A DNA stretch of 64,000 nt from Candidatus Omnitrophota bacterium (GTDB lineage Bacteria; Omnitrophota; Omnitrophia; Omnitrophales; Aquincolibacteriaceae), in the NCBI GenBank assembly GCA_016930235.1, contig JAFGHI010000063.1, forward strand, positions 799-64,798, read 5' to 3'. The first letter of the stretch is position 1. Each line of letters opens with the position of its first letter. Below, piece after piece: positions 46,917 through 54,786 of the stretch. The translations under genes were made by a program, and so were the position numbers. Below the pieces are notes generated by a model. The model searched no databases and was not told the DNA's origin. It was given only the letters and a program-made list of their open reading frames with translations.

Positions 46917-49328
46917 ATGAATCATCTTTCTCGGCTTTTAACCAATTTATTAAAACCTTTAATTGAAATTCGCCCTGGCGAGCGCGCTAAAACGCTTGTC
47001 ATGTTCGTCTATTTCTTCCTGATTATCGCTTCGGTCTGGATCTTAAAACCCGTCAGGGACTCACTTTTCCTTGAAGAGCTCGGGGCAAAAAATCTTCGCT
47101 ATATTTACATTGCCGAAGCCGGTTTTATGGTTGCTATTGTTTGGGGGTTTTCGCAATTTGCCAGGAGGGTGACCCAAAAGGTTCTTTATACAGGAGTCTT
47201 ATCGTTTTATATCGTGTGCCTTTTATTTTTTTGGATTTTGTTTCATTGGAAAGTTCCCTATCTATCTTTCTTTTTCTATATCTGGGTTGCGTCTTATTCC
47301 ATTGCAATGACAACGTTATTCTTTACTTTGGCCAATGATATCTTTAATCCCCAAGAAGCGAGGCGTCTGTTTGGCCTTATTCTCAGCGGAGGGAGCATTG
47401 GAGGAGTTCTTGGAGGATTGATAACGGAAAAACTGGCTGTTTTGCTTCATACTGAGAATCTTTTACTGGTGGTTGCTGTTATTATTAGCGCGTGTTGCCT
47501 TTTAGTTGGGATGATGTGGAAACACATTTCTCCGACCATCGATCACGCACCTCTTCCTAATGATCCCCCTCAAGAAAACAAGGGTAAAGCTGAACAGACG
47601 GTCCCTTTCCCGTCCGCGAAGAAACTTTTTACTGGATCTTCTTATTTGATGATGCTGGCGGGCCTCGTCATGATCGTTAAGATATCTTCTGCTGTTGTGG
47701 ACAATCAATTTAAAGGTATCGTTGAAGCATCGATTATCGGACTTGATTCCCGGACAGCTTTTTTGGGAGGATTTTTTAAGTGGCTCAATGCAGCTTCCTT
47801 TTTTAGCCAACTGTTTTTGACAAGTTTGGCTTTGAGATATTTAGGGGTCGGAATTTCCCTCTGGATTTTGCCGGTAGGACTGGCCATCGGGTCTGTTTTT
47901 AGTTTCTTGAATCCTATTCTTTTGACTGGGGGGGCTATAAAACTTTTTGACGGCAGTGGAAATTATTCGATTCAACAAGCGTGTCGGGAAGTTCTTTATC
48001 TACCGGTTCCGAGCAAGGTTCGGTATAGGGTCAAGCCGGTTATCGACATGCTGGGATTTCGTATTGCGAAGGGGTTGGGGGGTCTTTATATTGCCATTTT
48101 TGCCCCATTGCTTGGATTAGCTAATGAAAGATTAAGCTTGCTCGTTCTTCTTTTAATTCCCTTTTGGTTCATTCTTGCTTGGAGAATGAAAAAAGGATAT
48201 TCAAAGCTTTTGAAGGAACGGCTTGTTAAGAAGGGCAAATTTGATCAAGCTGTAAAAGCGCAGAGAGCGACGGATGTCTTGAGTATTCTCCATGACGAAA
48301 AAGGTTTTCATGATATCAAAGCTTTCATGAATCATCGATCTTCTTATGCTCGAAAATTGGCGGCGGCTGCTTATTTAGCCTATGCAAAGGCATCTAAGGA
48401 TGTTGGGCCGGCCAGGATTTTTATCAATCAGATGATTCAGCAGGAGGCATTTGACCAGGTTGAAGAGGCGGTCAATCAAGAGGGTTTGTTTGAGCGGGAT
48501 ATCTGTTTCTTGCAAGAATTGCTACAAGGAGAGGTGAAGGAAAAAGTTCCTAATGATGCAACATTCCGGGATTATTTGGACCGACATTCAGAAAGCGTTT
48601 TGTTGAAATTGGGAACAATTTTAAGGGATCCGGATTTGGGGTTGGCTATCAAGAGAAGAGCGGTTAGGCTAACAGAGATGATTCCCAAACAAGAATCGGT
48701 CGATCTTTTGCTTCACACACTTGCCAGCGCACAAGAGCATGCTTTCCGTTTCGTCATGATTAAAGCGCTGAATCGTTTGCAGACGCAAGACAAGACTTTG
48801 CGAATGAACCGATTTCTGATTAAAAGTGAGATTTCGAGAGAGGCAAAGATTCATGATAAAATTCAAAAAATCAGGTATTTTTACCATCAGCAACCATCCG
48901 TTACCGGTTCGGAAGATTATTTGGAAGTAGCGCTTAAGGCGATTTTGGAGGAGAGCCTTGAAAGGATTTTTTATTATCTTAATCTTTTGTATCCCGAGGA
49001 AGGGATTTTGGTCATTTTTGAGAGGATTCAGGAATATGCCGAAGATGATCCAGTTCGAGCGCATGCAGTTGAGCTTCTGAGCAATACTGTCGAGACAGAT
49101 CTTCATATTATTATTCACAAAATTTTGGATGGGCGAAAACTTCTGAAGGTAAAAGAAAGAGATATTATCGAAATTCTGAAAAATTTTGCAGGATCCCAAG
49201 ACCGTTGGTTTTCCATCACGAGTTACTTTTTGCTCTCAGGTCTTGGACTGACACAAAAATGGCCTGAACTAGCAGAGCTCGAAATTTTTCAGGATCTTGA
49301 TAGCAACCCATTTAAAGCAGAAACTTGA
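46917..49328 (+). CDS. TLC/Npt-family nucleotide (ATP/ADP) translocase with C-terminal helical (HEAT-like) domain
   Basis: About 12 TM in the first ~430 aa; ILKPVRDSLFL, ANDIFNPQEARRLFGLI, LYLPVP...RVKPVID; helical C-terminal ~370 aa. Confidence 0.85.
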   Translation: MNHLSRLLTNLLKPLIEIRPGERAKTLVMFVYFFLIIASVWILKPVRDSLFLEELGAKNLRYIYIAEAGFMVAIVWGFSQFARRVTQKVLYTGVLSFYIVCLLFFWILFHWKVPYLSFFFYIWVASYSIAMTTLFFTLANDIFNPQEARRLFGLILSGGSIGGVLGGLITEKLAVLLHTENLLLVVAVIISACCLLVGMMWKHISPTIDHAPLPNDPPQENKGKAEQTVPFPSAKKLFTGSSYLMMLAGLVMIVKISSAVVDNQFKGIVEASIIGLDSRTAFLGGFFKWLNAASFFSQLFLTSLALRYLGVGISLWILPVGLAIGSVFSFLNPILLTGGAIKLFDGSGNYSIQQACREVLYLPVPSKVRYRVKPVIDMLGFRIAKGLGGLYIAIFAPLLGLANERLSLLVLLLIPFWFILAWRMKKGYSKLLKERLVKKGKFDQAVKAQRATDVLSILHDEKGFHDIKAFMNHRSSYARKLAAAAYLAYAKASKDVGPARIFINQMIQQEAFDQVEEAVNQEGLFERDICFLQELLQGEVKEKVPNDATFRDYLDRHSESVLLKLGTILRDPDLGLAIKRRAVRLTEMIPKQESVDLLLHTLASAQEHAFRFVMIKALNRLQTQDKTLRMNRFLIKSEISREAKIHDKIQKIRYFYHQQPSVTGSEDYLEVALKAILEESLERIFYYLNLLYPEEGILVIFERIQEYAEDDPVRAHAVELLSNTVETDLHIIIHKILDGRKLLKVKERDIIEILKNFAGSQDRWFSITSYFLLSGLGLTQKWPELAELEIFQDLDSNPFKAET

Positions 49329-49409
49329 TGGCCAGCCTCTAGCTTTGTTTTCGGGCGATAAGATTAACCTAAGTGCTTTTAAACGGGTGCGTTAAGAAAA
49401 GACAAGCCC

Positions 49410-49438
49410 TTGTCGAAAATTAATCAACAGGGTATAAT
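49410..49438 (+). promoter_or_regulatory. sigma70 promoter upstream of the Omp85-family gene
   Basis: TTGTCG (49410-49415), 17 nt spacer, TATAAT (49433-49438). Confidence 0.6.
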
Positions 49439-49454
49439 GTTTTTACTTTAACAG

Positions 49455-50798
49455 ATGGGGCGTATGAAACATTGCAGAACTTCTTTTTATAAAGTAGCTT
49501 TCTTTTTCCTCGGCGTTTTGTTTATTGCCAGTCCTCTTTTTGCCCAAGATCTCTCCTATGATCGGTATACGGAAACTCTGCGGGAGCCTGAAGCGCCCTC
49601 TCGGGTCGGGCGGAGTATTGCTCATTTCCTTGTTTATCCGTTTGAAATTATTCGCTATGGGACGGATAAGACCTTGGTAGCAATCGAAAAGCATCACATT
49701 GACAAAAAAGTGAAATGGATTTATGAAAAAATTCAAAGCTATGGCATTAGTCCGCATCTTAATTTTGTAAGTATGAGCAATCGCTCATATGGAGCCGACA
49801 TCGATTTTATACGGCTCGTTCAGAAGAAAGAGTATTTGCCCGATTCGACATTGAGTGGGTGGGTTCGGTGGGCTGAGGACGGATATTTTCGAGCAGGAGG
49901 AAAGGTCGGATGGAGCCTCATCAAGGGGACTGGTCTTAGGACTTTCGGTATTGCCAATTATGAAAATCGTCACGAGGAACATTTTTACGGGGTAGGCCCC
50001 CATTCAAGTGCAGGGGATGGAGCCGTTTTCTCATGGGAAGAAACGAAGTTGGAATATCAGTTAGGATACAGCAAGACTCCGGAATGGGGCATTGACGGGA
50101 AATTTAGTTATCGTAATGTGAATATCTCAGGCGGGCGGGATGGTGGTAGGGGGCAAATCGGAGAAATTCCCACTTTCAGTGAAGAAAGGATACCGGGTTT
50201 TCATGGGGATTCCTTTTTAACCTGGAAGCTTGAAGTGATTCATGATACGCGTAATCAAAAAGAAAATTCCACGATAGGGGGGATGCAGCGATTCGGTTTC
50301 AGCTTTAACGAGGGATTAAATAGTTCGCTGGCGCGTTTTTTTCGATATGAAACAGAAGTGAGTCATTATTTTCGCCTGGGGGCCGACCGGAGGGTTTTAG
50401 CCTTTCATTTCTATGGGGAACACAATGATGAAGTAAACAACGGGCAGGTACCTTTCCACCAAATGGCAAAATTAGGCGGGTACGGAACTAGCCCGCATAT
50501 GAGTCATACGCTACGAGGCTATGATTTTAACCGTTTTTTTGATGAGAGCGCCTTGCTTTTCAATATAGAATACCGTTATACAATATGGGAATATCGTGAT
50601 TATAAATTAGATACGGTCTTTTTCTGGGACGAAGGCCAGGTTTTTGGCGAATTCAGTGAATTTCAGTTAAGTGATTTCAGGGAATCTTACGGAATAGGGT
50701 TCCGATTAAGCGTTGCGAATGTCATGTTTTTAGCTCTTGAAGTTGCACATGGAGATGAGGGTACCAATCTATATGTTAAAGGAAGCAGCCCATTTTAA
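49455..50798 (+). CDS. Omp85 (BamA/TamA)-family outer-membrane beta-barrel without evident POTRA domains
   Basis: Signal peptide; HDTRN, LGG...LRGYDFNRF, EYRY, YGIGFR, terminal Phe. Confidence 0.85.
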   Translation: MGRMKHCRTSFYKVAFFFLGVLFIASPLFAQDLSYDRYTETLREPEAPSRVGRSIAHFLVYPFEIIRYGTDKTLVAIEKHHIDKKVKWIYEKIQSYGISPHLNFVSMSNRSYGADIDFIRLVQKKEYLPDSTLSGWVRWAEDGYFRAGGKVGWSLIKGTGLRTFGIANYENRHEEHFYGVGPHSSAGDGAVFSWEETKLEYQLGYSKTPEWGIDGKFSYRNVNISGGRDGGRGQIGEIPTFSEERIPGFHGDSFLTWKLEVIHDTRNQKENSTIGGMQRFGFSFNEGLNSSLARFFRYETEVSHYFRLGADRRVLAFHFYGEHNDEVNNGQVPFHQMAKLGGYGTSPHMSHTLRGYDFNRFFDESALLFNIEYRYTIWEYRDYKLDTVFFWDEGQVFGEFSEFQLSDFRESYGIGFRLSVANVMFLALEVAHGDEGTNLYVKGSSPF

Positions 50799-52413
50799 GA
50801 TATTTGCCTGGTTTGTAATCGCAGGGTTAGCGTTATTCCCGAATATGGGGAACGCTGACCAAGCAGCAAACTATAAGAAAAACGATGTCGGTCTTTATCG
50901 GGACGTTTTTGATCAGAATATCTATTATGAAGGGACAAATTTTCTTCATTTAGAACGGCTCTATCGGGCCATTTTTAGGAAAAAGAGCCGATCTGCCAAC
51001 ATTAATATCTTTGACGAGGTTCCCGACTCAAACTTTTTCACAAATCGCCATGCCCGAACGCGGTTGAATGCAAGGGAGCTTGAAGAGGGCTTCCGACAGG
51101 GGGCTCCTCCGAGTTCGAACGGGAAACTTACTGTGACGAAGGGGAAATTTGAAGGGTTGCATCCTGGATTTTATGTTCGAGATGACAAAGGAGATGAATA
51201 TCTTTTGAAGTTTGATCCGCTTGATTATTTTGAGCTGGCGACGGGCGCAGAAACAGTCGCGAATCGATTTTTGTATGCCATTGGGTATAACGTTCCCCAA
51301 TATGATGTTTTCTACTTCAACGCAGACCGTTTGGTCCCCGCTCCTGAAGCAACAACCGTGGATGATACAGGTTTTTGCAAGAAGTTAGATCAGGCAAAAT
51401 TGGAAGAATATCTTCTTTATTTACCACAGGGTGACGATGGCAAATATCGTGCGGCGGCCAGCAACCTTTTGAAGGGCGAAAATCTTGGAGGGTTTAGTTT
51501 CGCCGGCCGGCGGAAAGATGACCGTGAAGATATTTATGATCATCAGGATCGGCGTGAGATTCGAGCGCTTCGGGTATTTTCCTCCTGGATCAATAATAAT
51601 GATGTTCGAGAAGGGAACACCCTTGATGTCCTCGTTGAAGAAAATGGGCGGTCTTTTATTAAACATTATTTAATTGATTTTAACGCATCGTTGGGTGCGG
51701 GTTCAGACGGGGCAAAACCGCCGATGTTTACCCATGAATATATGATTGACTATGGAGAAGCAACAAAAGCTTTTTTGGGCCTGGGTTTATGGCAGAAACC
51801 GTGGCAAAAGCGGTGGCAAGAAGCGGGTGAGACTTTTTCGCAATCTCCAGCCGTTGGTTATTTTGATAATCGTTATTTTGACCCAAGTAAGTATAAGACA
51901 CAATTACCTTATTTTGCTTTCAAAGATTTAACCCGCGCGGATGGTTTTTGGGCAGCAAGAATTATTATGTCCTTCACCGATGATGACATCCGCGCGATGG
52001 TTAAGGCGGGGGAATATAGTGAACCAGAAGATGCTGACTATATTGCCCAAACCCTGATTGAAAGAAGAGATATTATTGGGCGCTATTGGTTTAGTGAATC
52101 AAACCCACTTGATAAGTTTTCCATGACAGGAGATGCCCTGACTTTCAATAACCTAGCTGTTGATTACGGGTTCGAATCGAAAGAGGGGATCACTTATCAT
52201 GTTAAAATCATTGAGAAGATTAAGAAGCGGGGCAAAGAGCTAGAAACCATTCAAATTAGCCAGCCGTCTGTAGACCTTGGGAAATGGCTTTCCGAGGCGG
52301 GTTCCTTAGATATCTTAATCAAAACTGAATGGGCTCAACAAGGCGAACTAAGCCCGATGGTTTTGGTTGAAATTAGGCAAGGAAAAGTTGCCGGCATTAT
52401 CCACGAAGATTAA
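50773..52413 (+). CDS. Exported protein with HipA/PI3K-like kinase motifs
   Basis: Signal-like N-terminus; YLLKFD, GAETVA, GYNVP, NNNDVREGN (Dx4N), LIDFNASLG; overlaps the Omp85 gene. Confidence 0.6.
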   Translation: MLKEAAHFKIFAWFVIAGLALFPNMGNADQAANYKKNDVGLYRDVFDQNIYYEGTNFLHLERLYRAIFRKKSRSANINIFDEVPDSNFFTNRHARTRLNARELEEGFRQGAPPSSNGKLTVTKGKFEGLHPGFYVRDDKGDEYLLKFDPLDYFELATGAETVANRFLYAIGYNVPQYDVFYFNADRLVPAPEATTVDDTGFCKKLDQAKLEEYLLYLPQGDDGKYRAAASNLLKGENLGGFSFAGRRKDDREDIYDHQDRREIRALRVFSSWINNNDVREGNTLDVLVEENGRSFIKHYLIDFNASLGAGSDGAKPPMFTHEYMIDYGEATKAFLGLGLWQKPWQKRWQEAGETFSQSPAVGYFDNRYFDPSKYKTQLPYFAFKDLTRADGFWAARIIMSFTDDDIRAMVKAGEYSEPEDADYIAQTLIERRDIIGRYWFSESNPLDKFSMTGDALTFNNLAVDYGFESKEGITYHVKIIEKIKKRGKELETIQISQPSVDLGKWLSEAGSLDILIKTEWAQQGELSPMVLVEIRQGKVAGIIHED

Positions 52414-52600: not shown

Positions 52601-53647
52601 GTGCGAGAGATATTGCTCGAATGTTTGATATGCCCAAGATGTGGGAAGCAAGAATGGAAAATTCAGGTAGACTCAAAGAGTGAGTATGAGATCCGAGAAG
52701 GAATCCTGTCATGCCTTTCTTGTGGGCGGCAGAATACTATTACCAAGGGTATTGTGGATTGCCTTGGCGAACTTTCTTTGGAAGTAGCTCATGAGAAAAA
52801 TCACGCCGAATCCCTTGGATACTTGGTTACCCCCGAAGGAGAAAGTTGTGTAATCAACGAGGAAACAATCCAATGTTTTCGAAATCTCTTCTTATCGCTT
52901 CCGGCAGGGGATGGAAGTGCTTATTTTAAGCCGGGTGGCAGTTTTGACAATCAGGCTGGCAACGCGGAGCGGTTTTTTAAAACTCTTGATTTGCTTAATC
53001 TGACCGGGGAAGAAAAAATTTTGGAGGTTGGAGCAAGTTTTGGGTGGGGAGCATGGCGATTTGCTCAGCGAGGATGTCAGGTTGTTGCTCTTGATGTGAC
53101 AAATTATTTACAGGCTGCCGATCTTTATTTTGATAAAGATGGGTGTTACTTTGATCGAGTCATGGCTGATATGAACGCACTCCCTTTTTCGGACGGAAGT
53201 TTTGATATCATTTTTTCTCATTCCGTGATTCATCATTGCAAGAATATTGAAAATTTATTCTGCGAGTTTTATCGAGTTCTCCGACCTGGAGGGAGAGTTG
53301 TTGCACTTCATGAATGTGCTTTCGGAATTTTTGAGGACAAATCAGGTAAAGCGTTAAAAAAAGCGATCGATGAAGGTTTTAATGAAAATGCCTATACTCT
53401 TTGGGAGTGGTGGCAGGGGGCAAGACGGGGAGGATTTTTAAATATACGATTTCATTTCTTTTCTCTTGTTGATGATTATATCCACCGAAAAAAAATTCGC
53501 GGCTCAGGAATGACAGGCAAACTACGATTTGCTTATTGGATCAAAGCTCGTCCTTTCTTAAATCGATTGATTAATCTTCTGAGTATTATCCCACGAATTA
53601 TATTAAGACCTAAAGCCTGGATGATGATGGCTAGCCGGTCGAAATAA
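52601..53647 (+). CDS. Class I SAM methyltransferase with N-terminal Trm112-like Zn ribbon
   Basis: LICPRC...LSCLSC, ILEVGASFG, ADMNALPFSDGSFD, RVLRPGG. Confidence 0.88.
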   Translation: MREILLECLICPRCGKQEWKIQVDSKSEYEIREGILSCLSCGRQNTITKGIVDCLGELSLEVAHEKNHAESLGYLVTPEGESCVINEETIQCFRNLFLSLPAGDGSAYFKPGGSFDNQAGNAERFFKTLDLLNLTGEEKILEVGASFGWGAWRFAQRGCQVVALDVTNYLQAADLYFDKDGCYFDRVMADMNALPFSDGSFDIIFSHSVIHHCKNIENLFCEFYRVLRPGGRVVALHECAFGIFEDKSGKALKKAIDEGFNENAYTLWEWWQGARRGGFLNIRFHFFSLVDDYIHRKKIRGSGMTGKLRFAYWIKARPFLNRLINLLSIIPRIILRPKAWMMMASRSK

Positions 53648-54417: not shown

Positions 54418-54786
54418 ATGTGTAAGATTAAACCATTTATAGCAATTTGCTCTTTGCTAGGGCTGATGATTGTTTTCTCTCTGACAGCGGTATCTGCGTG
54501 GGCGTTTAAGAATAATCCTCCAGGACCGAAAGGTGGGAAAGGGACAAACTGGAATAATCCCCCTGGCCCGGAAGGAGGGCCGGGAGCAAGCCCTAAAGAA
54601 GTCGATTCAAATAAATGGTGGCAGTCCAAGGTGGCGTATCATAAGTTGGAAAGGGAAGAACTTAGGACTAAGTTAGAAAAGCTGAAAGAATATCGGTCTG
54701 AATTAATGGCTAGCGGGGCCGATGGAGATCTCATCGCAGAAATTAATGATGAAATCGAAGACGTTGAAGAAGCCTTATTCCGCTAA
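54418..54786 (+). CDS. Small exported protein with NNPPGPxGG repeats and a C-terminal coiled coil
   Basis: Signal peptide ending AWA; NNPPGPKGGKGTNW-NNPPGPEGGPGASP. Confidence 0.75.
   Translation: MCKIKPFIAICSLLGLMIVFSLTAVSAWAFKNNPPGPKGGKGTNWNNPPGPEGGPGASPKEVDSNKWWQSKVAYHKLEREELRTKLEKLKEYRSELMASGADGDLIAEINDEIEDVEEALFR

Follow-up and report, generated by a model that had tools for sequence, protein, structure and literature searches.

A window of 64,000 nucleotides from Candidatus Omnitrophota bacterium (contig JAFGHI010000063.1, positions 799 to 64,798) was found to encode, consecutively on one strand, a nucleotide carrier of the NTT/TLC family, an Omp85 barrel and an exported-looking protein with an atypical kinase fold (Table 1), as an earlier note on this DNA had described. 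Comparison across genomes indicates that the trio is a genuine envelope system, made of known folds, which is widespread and has apparently not been described before. At its core is the constant pair of barrel and kinase; the carrier can be lost, and its loss goes along with decay of the ATP site of the kinase. Sequence comparison and structure models together make it probable that ATP is exported by the carrier for use by a periplasmic kinase docked on the barrel. This kinase would phosphorylate an envelope substrate, and the comparative support for such a predicted carrier-fed phosphorylation is strong.

The evidence that carries this reading comes from 55 genomes of the window's class, each at least 90% complete, in which 68 orthologous kinases were aligned; the divergent subfamily G000:C1, L153, L168 and L171, a truncated sequence (L060), one of unknown context (L170) and one that was too short (G002) were left out. 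The five catalytic residues K146, E160, D277, N282 and D302 were all intact in 35/35 kinases encoded beside a carrier (one of these adjacencies was inferred across split contigs, and one carrier and one kinase are split by frameshifts) and in 4/4 kinases whose genome has the carrier at another site or at a contig end, as well as in 1/3 second copies and in 4/26 kinases with no carrier found. When 29 carrier-negative genomes were searched again with Pfam TLC, nothing was found in 28, and the remaining genome (G047) carried a distant member of 469 amino acids. In many carrier-less loci a yraN-like gene abuts the barrel gene, indicating that the carrier has gone from its usual site. The statement that catalytic residues are kept only beside the carrier was rejected as too strong, given four intact carrier-negative genomes and many intact loci with the carrier elsewhere.

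The catalytic columns were removed before the tree was built. On this tree, degeneration required six changes, at least four of which are forced by starred branches, and independent pairs ran in the same direction 3.6/6 times and never in the opposite one. Decay was also ranked by column over the 80 columns conserved in carrier-positive rows, with the genus that makes up 12/26 carrier-negative rows down-weighted. All five catalytic residues fell within the 15 most decayed columns (hypergeometric 1.2e-4, with columns that are not independent), and 40 columns were fully conserved in carrier-negative rows. The most decayed columns were S230, L284, K125, G132, K146, Y177, N282, D302, G124, R279 and D277. 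Decay is thus concentrated in the ATP pocket where the carrier was not found.

Among 81 genomes sampled from Acidobacteriota, the carrier was present in 15/17 kinase-positive genomes, compared to 16/64 kinase-negative ones. In the two kinase-positive, carrier-negative genomes (G129 and G144), which were checked after the prediction had been made, the beta-3 Lys is gone, and so are three or more of the other four residues. A carrier thus seems almost a requirement for an intact site, though not enough to ensure one. As a separate observation, an acidobacterial subclade (L101, L125, L129, L137, L138 and L258) has Glu in place of the beta-3 Lys, keeps the Gly-loop Lys and the D/N/D residues, and twice lies beside a carrier; its lysine has possibly migrated.

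The third protein of the trio was assigned, on its AlphaFold model, to the atypical protein-kinase-like (PKL) superfamily, i.e., the clade of actin-fragmin kinase (AFK), PI4K, HipA, Fam20 and CotH, with the bilobed PKL fold. In a structure alignment with VIA-align the top 13 rows were all atypical kinases (Z 10.2-13.7, root-mean-square deviation (rmsd) 3.9-4.7, 211-259 residues aligned). The best match was CtkA (Z 13.7, rmsd 4.2, 231 aligned), followed by Hydra Fam20 (5xom; Z 13.1, rmsd 4.0, 259 aligned), PI4KII (12.9), CotH (11.6), actin-fragmin kinase (11.6) and HipA/HipT (11.2/11.0). Foldseek concurs, and the four kinases against which the earlier note had proposed the comparison (HipA, PI4K, CotH and Fam20) are all represented in these matches. 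The kinase landmarks that the same note had read in order from the letters also held up: KGKFEGLHPGF starts at residue 123 (Gly loop 124-132), YLLKFD at 143, GAETVA at 158, DVREGN at 277 and LIDFN at 300, placing the beta-3 Lys K146 at nucleotide 51208, the alpha-C Glu E160 at 51250, D277 and N282 of the catalytic D-x4-N at 51601 and 51616, and the metal-binding D302 at 51676. In the model, K146 lies in a strand (142-147) and E160 in a helix (155-170). Of the homologue representatives found (2621 at E<=0.001), the best 150 were inspected and 120 were aligned with the query (n=121); K146 was conserved in 109, E/D160 in 109, D277 in 109, N282 in 110 and D302 in 113, i.e., each in about 90%. A close homologue (P0008, 44% identical) is also from Candidatus Omnitrophota. 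Phosphotransfer by the window's protein is a prediction from its modelled fold, whose clade has members acting on proteins, on lipids and on sugars.

None of the named-family cut-offs (HipA, Fam20, CotH, PI4K) was reached by this protein, HipA_2 giving 12.7 bits against 27 (E 0.074; the homologue P0001 matched HipA_2 with E 7.4e-5), no match was found in NCBIfam or in a PDB sequence search, and its Atlas neighbours have no common Pfam family. It forms a family of its own, with no Pfam cut-off reached. The C-terminus (residues 442-537) aligned with many fibronectin type III (FnIII) chains (Z 8-9.8, rmsd 2.2-3.0 over 80-90 residues). Export to the periplasm is likely, as predicted from sequence: a hydrophobic stretch was found within the first 45 residues of 111/121 homologues, compared to 0-6 in nine downstream control windows of this heuristic, which agrees with the signal-like N-terminus noticed earlier, and a lipobox-like motif (loose pattern) occurs in 38/121. 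Three apparent barrel-kinase fusions (P0166-P0168) contain both domains but were read as frameshift-garbled translations and were not used, nor was the joint open reading frame of L107. Some kinase homologues (P0082, P0124 and P0152-P0165) are longer, ~970-1160 amino acids, with a conserved, unannotated C-terminal extension.

The claim of an Omp85 barrel without POTRA domains stood as well. The product of the barrel gene matched Pfam Omp85 (E 5.6e-14), its AlphaFold model has N-terminal helices followed by 16 strands and no POTRA, and its best Foldseek matches were BamA/TamA (E about 1e-12). With the loop-6 RG(F/Y) motif, and with R354 and R360 invariant among 50 homologues, the protein was identified from its model as a noNterm-type Omp85. 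It does not appear to be a BamA/TamA insertase or a TpsB protein, since the model has no POTRA and the profile scores were low (13 bits against 1050 for BamA; 80 against 200 for NF047779).

A partnership of barrel and kinase, also suggested in the earlier note, is supported by complex prediction, in which the pair scored 0.74 and the best control 0.00. In a benchmark that is roughly applicable here (our own alignments were supplied), this mark was reached by 116/157 solved and 2/215 mismatched pairs; the runs share at least 87% of contacts, with a predicted local distance difference test score (pLDDT) of at least 87 for the partner. The predicted contacts comprise barrel residues 33-88, 310-313 and 375-387 and include kinase residues 75-95, 196-201 and 316-349; the N-terminal helices of the barrel (residues 50-95) form part of the predicted dock. 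In Omp85 proteins, the topology of loop 6 marks the extracellular face. With the LRGY motif (353-356, strands 11/12) taken as this marker, strand topology places the predicted dock, made of the pre-barrel helices and periplasmic turns, on the periplasmic face, which lends no support to the earlier idea that the barrel displays the kinase at the cell surface. Several of the predicted kinase contact segments remain conserved in pseudokinases, which may explain why the pair is retained without ATP. A comparison of interface and ATP-site conservation in degenerate rows (0.70 to 0.60 and 0.97 to 0.39, respectively) is circular for the ATP site and was not relied on.

The carrier is a member of the NTT/TLC (AAA) family. 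Its TLC domain scored above the Pfam cut-off (E 9.3e-17, 61.4 bits against 21), and a profile of 35 carrier sequences matched solved ATP/ADP carriers of plastid and parasite origin (9J3N, 3.5e-42; 9J3J, 2.8e-33); the cut-off of TIGR00769 was not reached (40 bits against 387). The membrane domain of ~440 amino acids is followed by a HEAT-like helical C-terminal domain (HEAT_2 at residues 567-625, weak, E 0.034), in line with the earlier description of this protein. NTTs are gradient-driven exchangers. The four key residues of AATP1 (K155, E245, E385 and K527, as named in the accessible text of PMC4256464 and PMC10654386) were mapped by hand on the profile alignment: K527 corresponds to carrier K385, which is K in 23/24 and R in 1/24 sequences of the window's class, and E385 to D262, which is D or E in 24/24. 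K527 has been linked to the transport of triphosphate and inorganic phosphate (Pi), and the substrate range of NTTs is described as not predictable from sequence (both from the available part of PMC4256464); the fusions of NTT with HEAT domains are called uncharacterised in PMC5381601.

Analysis of gene neighbourhoods showed that the three families co-localise in several phyla and in two gene orders, as the earlier note required of its proposal. Of the 41 genomes of the window's order, 40 have the kinase, 39 the barrel and 29 the carrier. In 25/29 carrier-positive relatives the carrier and the pair share a strand and are at most ~1 kb apart, with the carrier upstream in 16 cases and downstream in 9 (one of the latter loci is cut by a contig start); of the other four carriers, two are at a contig end and two elsewhere. 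A scan of GTDB gave 569 confirmed loci, of which the best 78 were taken, mostly from Acidobacteriota and also from Calditrichota and Krumholzibacteriota. These distant loci were chosen by motif and similarity, so that their near-universal intact sites are biased, and they were not used for the co-loss count. The barrel gene is directly upstream of the kinase gene in 73/78 and a carrier lies within 8 kb in 31/78; among the 47 loci without an adjacent carrier, 34 genomes were searched and a TLC-family gene was found elsewhere in 32.

Other genes recur at these loci. Phosphatase neighbours in the 78 distant loci were metallophosphoesterases (17), PAP2 (10) and DSP (4) proteins, mostly with signal-like N-termini by eye, and such a gene was found within 8 kb in 21/31 carrier-bearing loci versus 8/47 others, with flank lengths that vary. 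In the window's own class, a DSP phosphatase, resembling the Y_phosphatase2 family, was present in 7/34 carrier-adjacent versus 0/26 carrier-less loci, and a DUF5329 lipoprotein in 20/34 versus 1/26. The window's locus itself has no DUF5329-like gene, though relatives keep one there; six exported DUF5329-like proteins are scattered over the window's genome (contigs C1, C9, C21, C53, C58 and C60). Genes with cNBD domains lie beside the carrier in 6/78 distant loci, and Hanks-type Ser/Thr kinases were seen near 16 Acidobacteriota loci (L070-L132), often between carrier genes. The window's genome also has a second, divergent pair of barrel and kinase-lipoprotein (G000:C1:1-2862, minus strand), with no carrier upstream on C1 and the contig ending just downstream. 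In this divergent subfamily (the one left out above) the catalytic Asp position is Gly, and the Asn and DFG are kept; a pseudokinase and a shifted chemistry are candidate readings of these sequences.

Taken as a mechanism, the carrier would pass cytoplasmic ATP into the periplasm and take ADP back in exchange. The exported ATP would serve the kinase, docked on the periplasmic side of the Omp85 barrel that is paired with it, in phosphorylating an envelope substrate. We guess that this substrate is found at the barrel mouth or the inner leaflet of the outer membrane, where a protein, a lipid or a glycan could be bound or in transit; the co-lost DUF5329 lipoprotein is one candidate. Exported phosphatases, neighbours in relatives, would reverse the mark, return Pi and close the cycle. 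That the carrier supplies ATP is the simplest reading because ATP has to reach any kinase that works beyond the inner membrane and because the ATP site of this one decays upon loss of the carrier, and together with carrier adjacency this co-loss supports the ATP-supply branch of the earlier proposal. The carrier would run outward because NTTs are driven by gradients and a periplasmic kinase would act as an ATP sink. Since barrel and pseudokinase are retained after carrier loss, the pair probably has an ATP-independent role too.

Several observations weigh against ATP export to the kinase. Four carrier-negative genomes (G001, G009, G018 and G060) keep all five catalytic residues, 12/26 carrier-negative rows belong to one genus, and in a sign test the independent pairs do not reach significance (median p 0.125). 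A strictly intact kinase copy was found in just 10/15 carrier-positive Acidobacteriota genomes. Two further genomes show conservative swaps alone (Asp to Glu or Asn to Gln), and the beta-3 Lys is absent from the examined copy in 3/15 (a truncated further copy in G181 was left out); such a Lys-less kinase lies directly beside a carrier in L258, and likewise in L129. The carriers of kinase-negative Acidobacteriota indicate that carriers have other uses. No phosphatase gene is present at the locus in the window, and a search of the window's genome gave no DSP homologue. Finally, co-loss of carrier and ATP pocket does not give the direction of transport, the residues corresponding to AATP1 K155 and E245 are not kept (Y64 and A125 by hand mapping), and every NTT of known function in the literature consulted is described as an importer (PMC5381601).

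The same co-loss is also compatible with nucleotide scavenging, in which the barrel would admit ATP of a host or prey cell, the kinase-fold protein would capture or sense it in the periplasm and the carrier would import it. This harvesting, the other branch of the earlier note, is retained here as the main rival, though an unlikely one. It agrees with the canonical direction of NTTs (PMC5381601) and with the host dependence described for Omnitrophota, and it extends the reading of their translocases as symbiosis factors in the accessible part of PMC10066038. However, the residues kept with the carrier include D277, N282 and D302, which serve phosphotransfer beyond binding, the same trio is common in Acidobacteriota with genomes of 4-10 Mb, and exported-looking phosphatases next to it would destroy captured ATP. 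To our knowledge, moreover, Omp85 barrels are not known as nucleotide pores.

An intact catalytic site together with a carrier would equally be required if the protein phosphorylated an incoming solute, or made ATP or another nucleotide from exported ADP and an external phosphoryl donor, with the carrier reimporting the product. The lipid and sugar kinases of the fold clade (PI4KII, Fam20) and the Y_phosphatase2-like DSP neighbours fit such a small-molecule or reverse kinase. We regard it as quite improbable, given that ordinary phosphoesters cannot drive ATP synthesis, on established thermodynamics, and that no donor-handling gene recurs in the neighbourhoods. Secretion of two-partner type, in which the kinase would be a CtkA-like effector that the barrel passes to the cell surface or into a host, with the carrier as a separate symbiosis gene, could account for the upstream position of the barrel gene in 73/78 loci and for secreted CtkA being the top structural match; it is very doubtful in view of the predicted dock at periplasmic turns and N-terminal helices, the lack of a POTRA domain and the lipobox-like motif in some homologues, and an effector fed by host ATP would not decay after loss of a bacterial carrier. 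That the carrier is a chance neighbour of a barrel-pseudoenzyme pair, as its absence from the vicinity in 47/78 distant loci and the promoter-like site in the carrier-barrel gap might suggest, is the least credible alternative in the face of two gene orders, adjacency in several phyla, ATP-site co-decay and the TLC genes found elsewhere in 32/34 genomes.

Table 1. Features of the carrier-barrel-kinase locus (positions in the window)
Feature	Position	Strand	Evidence
NTT/TLC (AAA-family) nucleotide carrier, 803 aa	46917..49328	+	Pfam TLC, HEAT_2, family profile against solved carriers
Carrier Lys385 codon, AATP1 K527 equivalent	48069..48071	+	Hand mapping on profile alignment
Sigma-70-like promoter candidate, 126-nt carrier-barrel gap	49410..49438	+	TTGTCG-17-TATAAT, 10/12 match
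POTRA-less 16-stranded Omp85 barrel with N-terminal helices, 447 aa	49455..50798	+	Pfam Omp85, AlphaFold, Foldseek
Loop-6 LRGY motif between strands 11 and 12	50511..50522	+	R354, R360 conservation; model strands
Exported-looking atypical protein-kinase-like protein, 546 aa	50773..52413	+	AlphaFold pLDDT 93.7; structure searches; 2621 representatives at E<=0.001
Predicted Sec signal peptide, residues 1-28, cleavage after G-N-A inferred	50773..50856	+	Sequence, hydropathy
Kinase domain, residues ~100-445	51070..52107	+	Motifs, conservation, structure alignment
Fibronectin type-III-like domain, residues 442-537	52096..52383	+	Structure alignment

The open reading frames of the trio lie where the earlier note had placed them, and the ATG of the kinase gene gives a 26-nt overlap with the barrel gene. 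The separate promoter that the earlier note placed between the carrier and barrel genes exists as a pattern; sites at this level of match number 13 against 12.6 expected by chance from shuffles, leaving a promoter candidate only. As a separator of the carrier from the pair the promoter is a weak caveat, since in other lineages the carrier gene follows 0-60 nt after the kinase gene. Upstream of the carrier gene is a housekeeping run that we take, from its translations, to be trmD, rplS, rnhB and yraN, and the stop codon of the presumed yraN-like gene immediately precedes the carrier ATG. Downstream of the trio, positions 52601-53647 encode a Trm112-like zinc finger and an S-adenosylmethionine (SAM) methyltransferase; several relatives keep such a gene there, with cysteine-synthase-like and JAB-like genes (the last two labelled by eye). 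The short protein encoded at 54418-54786 looks exported and combines repeated NNPPGP motifs with a coiled-coil tail; it had no family match above cut-off.

Among known systems, the closest parallel is with the animal Fam20 kinases of the secretory pathway, such as the Golgi casein kinase Fam20C, which share the atypical kinase fold clade, a signal peptide and a site outside the cytosol, hence the need for carried ATP. Secretory-pathway kinases are fed by a luminal ATP transporter. The window's system differs in being bacterial, predicted to be periplasmic and docked on an Omp85 barrel, in its NTT carrier and FnIII tail, in its ~10% identity and in an activity that is predicted. CtkA (Helicobacter pylori JHP0940), CotH (Bacillus spore coat), HipA/HipT, PI4KII and actin-fragmin kinase share the fold and the order of D-x4-N and D-F-x; they use cytoplasmic or host ATP, and we know of no dedicated barrel or carrier for any of them. 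The carrier resembles NTT/Tlc translocases and the NTT-HEAT(-cNBD) fusions (PMC5381601) in its TLC domain, HEAT-like tail and K527 and E385 equivalents, and differs from the translocases in the replaced K155 and E245 equivalents and in the outward direction proposed; a barrel or kinase neighbour of NTT-HEAT is not discussed in the main text of that paper. The barrel resembles the noNterm Omp85 proteins in the accessible text of PMC4104836, differing in that its partner is a separate kinase-fold protein. That text suggests roles in outer-membrane protein biogenesis or as proteases for noNterm and Metallo-Omp85 proteins, with kinases unmentioned in it, and the leptospiral noNterm barrels in the available part of PMC11358297 have other neighbours. 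No description of the barrel-kinase-carrier gene set was found in the literature searched, mostly open papers, supplements aside.

The Metallo-Omp85 proteins, in which a PF00149 phosphoesterase is joined to the barrel (PMC4104836, accessible text), echo the phosphoesterase neighbours of the trio. As a fused homologue they were rejected and kept as a lead, the comparison with the kinase family by hhalign giving just E 0.048 (0.14 with a single sequence). Their middle domain, which keeps invariant GGG, GDWDRHxDQW and PRDRD motifs, matched no kinase in PDB and Pfam searches, with Atlas kinase neighbours scoring 0.75-0.76, and a carrier was found near Metallo-Omp85 in 1/68 loci. As observations on Flavobacteriaceae members (P0187 residues 385-780; loci L176-L243), the unannotated middle domain has invariant kinase-like motifs, and the usual neighbours are an HD-PycTM gene (43/68 loci) and a 790-amino-acid gene without a Pfam match (35/68). 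In one Bacteroidota-like locus (L231:8197-19212), a PAP2-like gene (by eye), a Metallo-Omp85 and an NTT-HEAT carrier lie within 11 kb.

The periplasm is taught as ATP-free. A generalisation that we advance tentatively, leaning slightly less than halfway towards it, is that, in diderms of several phyla, dedicated ATP export by NTT carriers may drive a cycle of kinase and phosphatase at the periplasmic face of a dedicated Omp85 barrel, as a bacterial counterpart of Golgi Fam20; many ATP/ADP translocases assigned to energy parasitism in metagenomes may be such supply lines, and the Metallo-Omp85 of Bacteroidota may be a one-chain phosphatase-kinase-barrel analogue. In the window's class, the ATP/ADP translocase gene is the one that adjoins the barrel-kinase pair. 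A translocase has been reported in 20/36 Omnitrophia and read as ATP scavenging (accessible part of PMC10066038), with a similar reading for Aridivitia (available text of PMC13755416), and the present reading would challenge the use of this gene as a marker of parasitism or predation in both. The natural pseudokinase lineages are ready negative controls, making the idea directly testable. If it is true, three classes of orphan proteins would acquire a function, namely the free-living NTT-HEAT carriers, the Omp85 barrels of noNterm type and a kinase family that has more than 2,600 representatives and no annotation, and dedicated ATP export feeding a periplasmic kinase would be a new layer of envelope regulation or chemistry.

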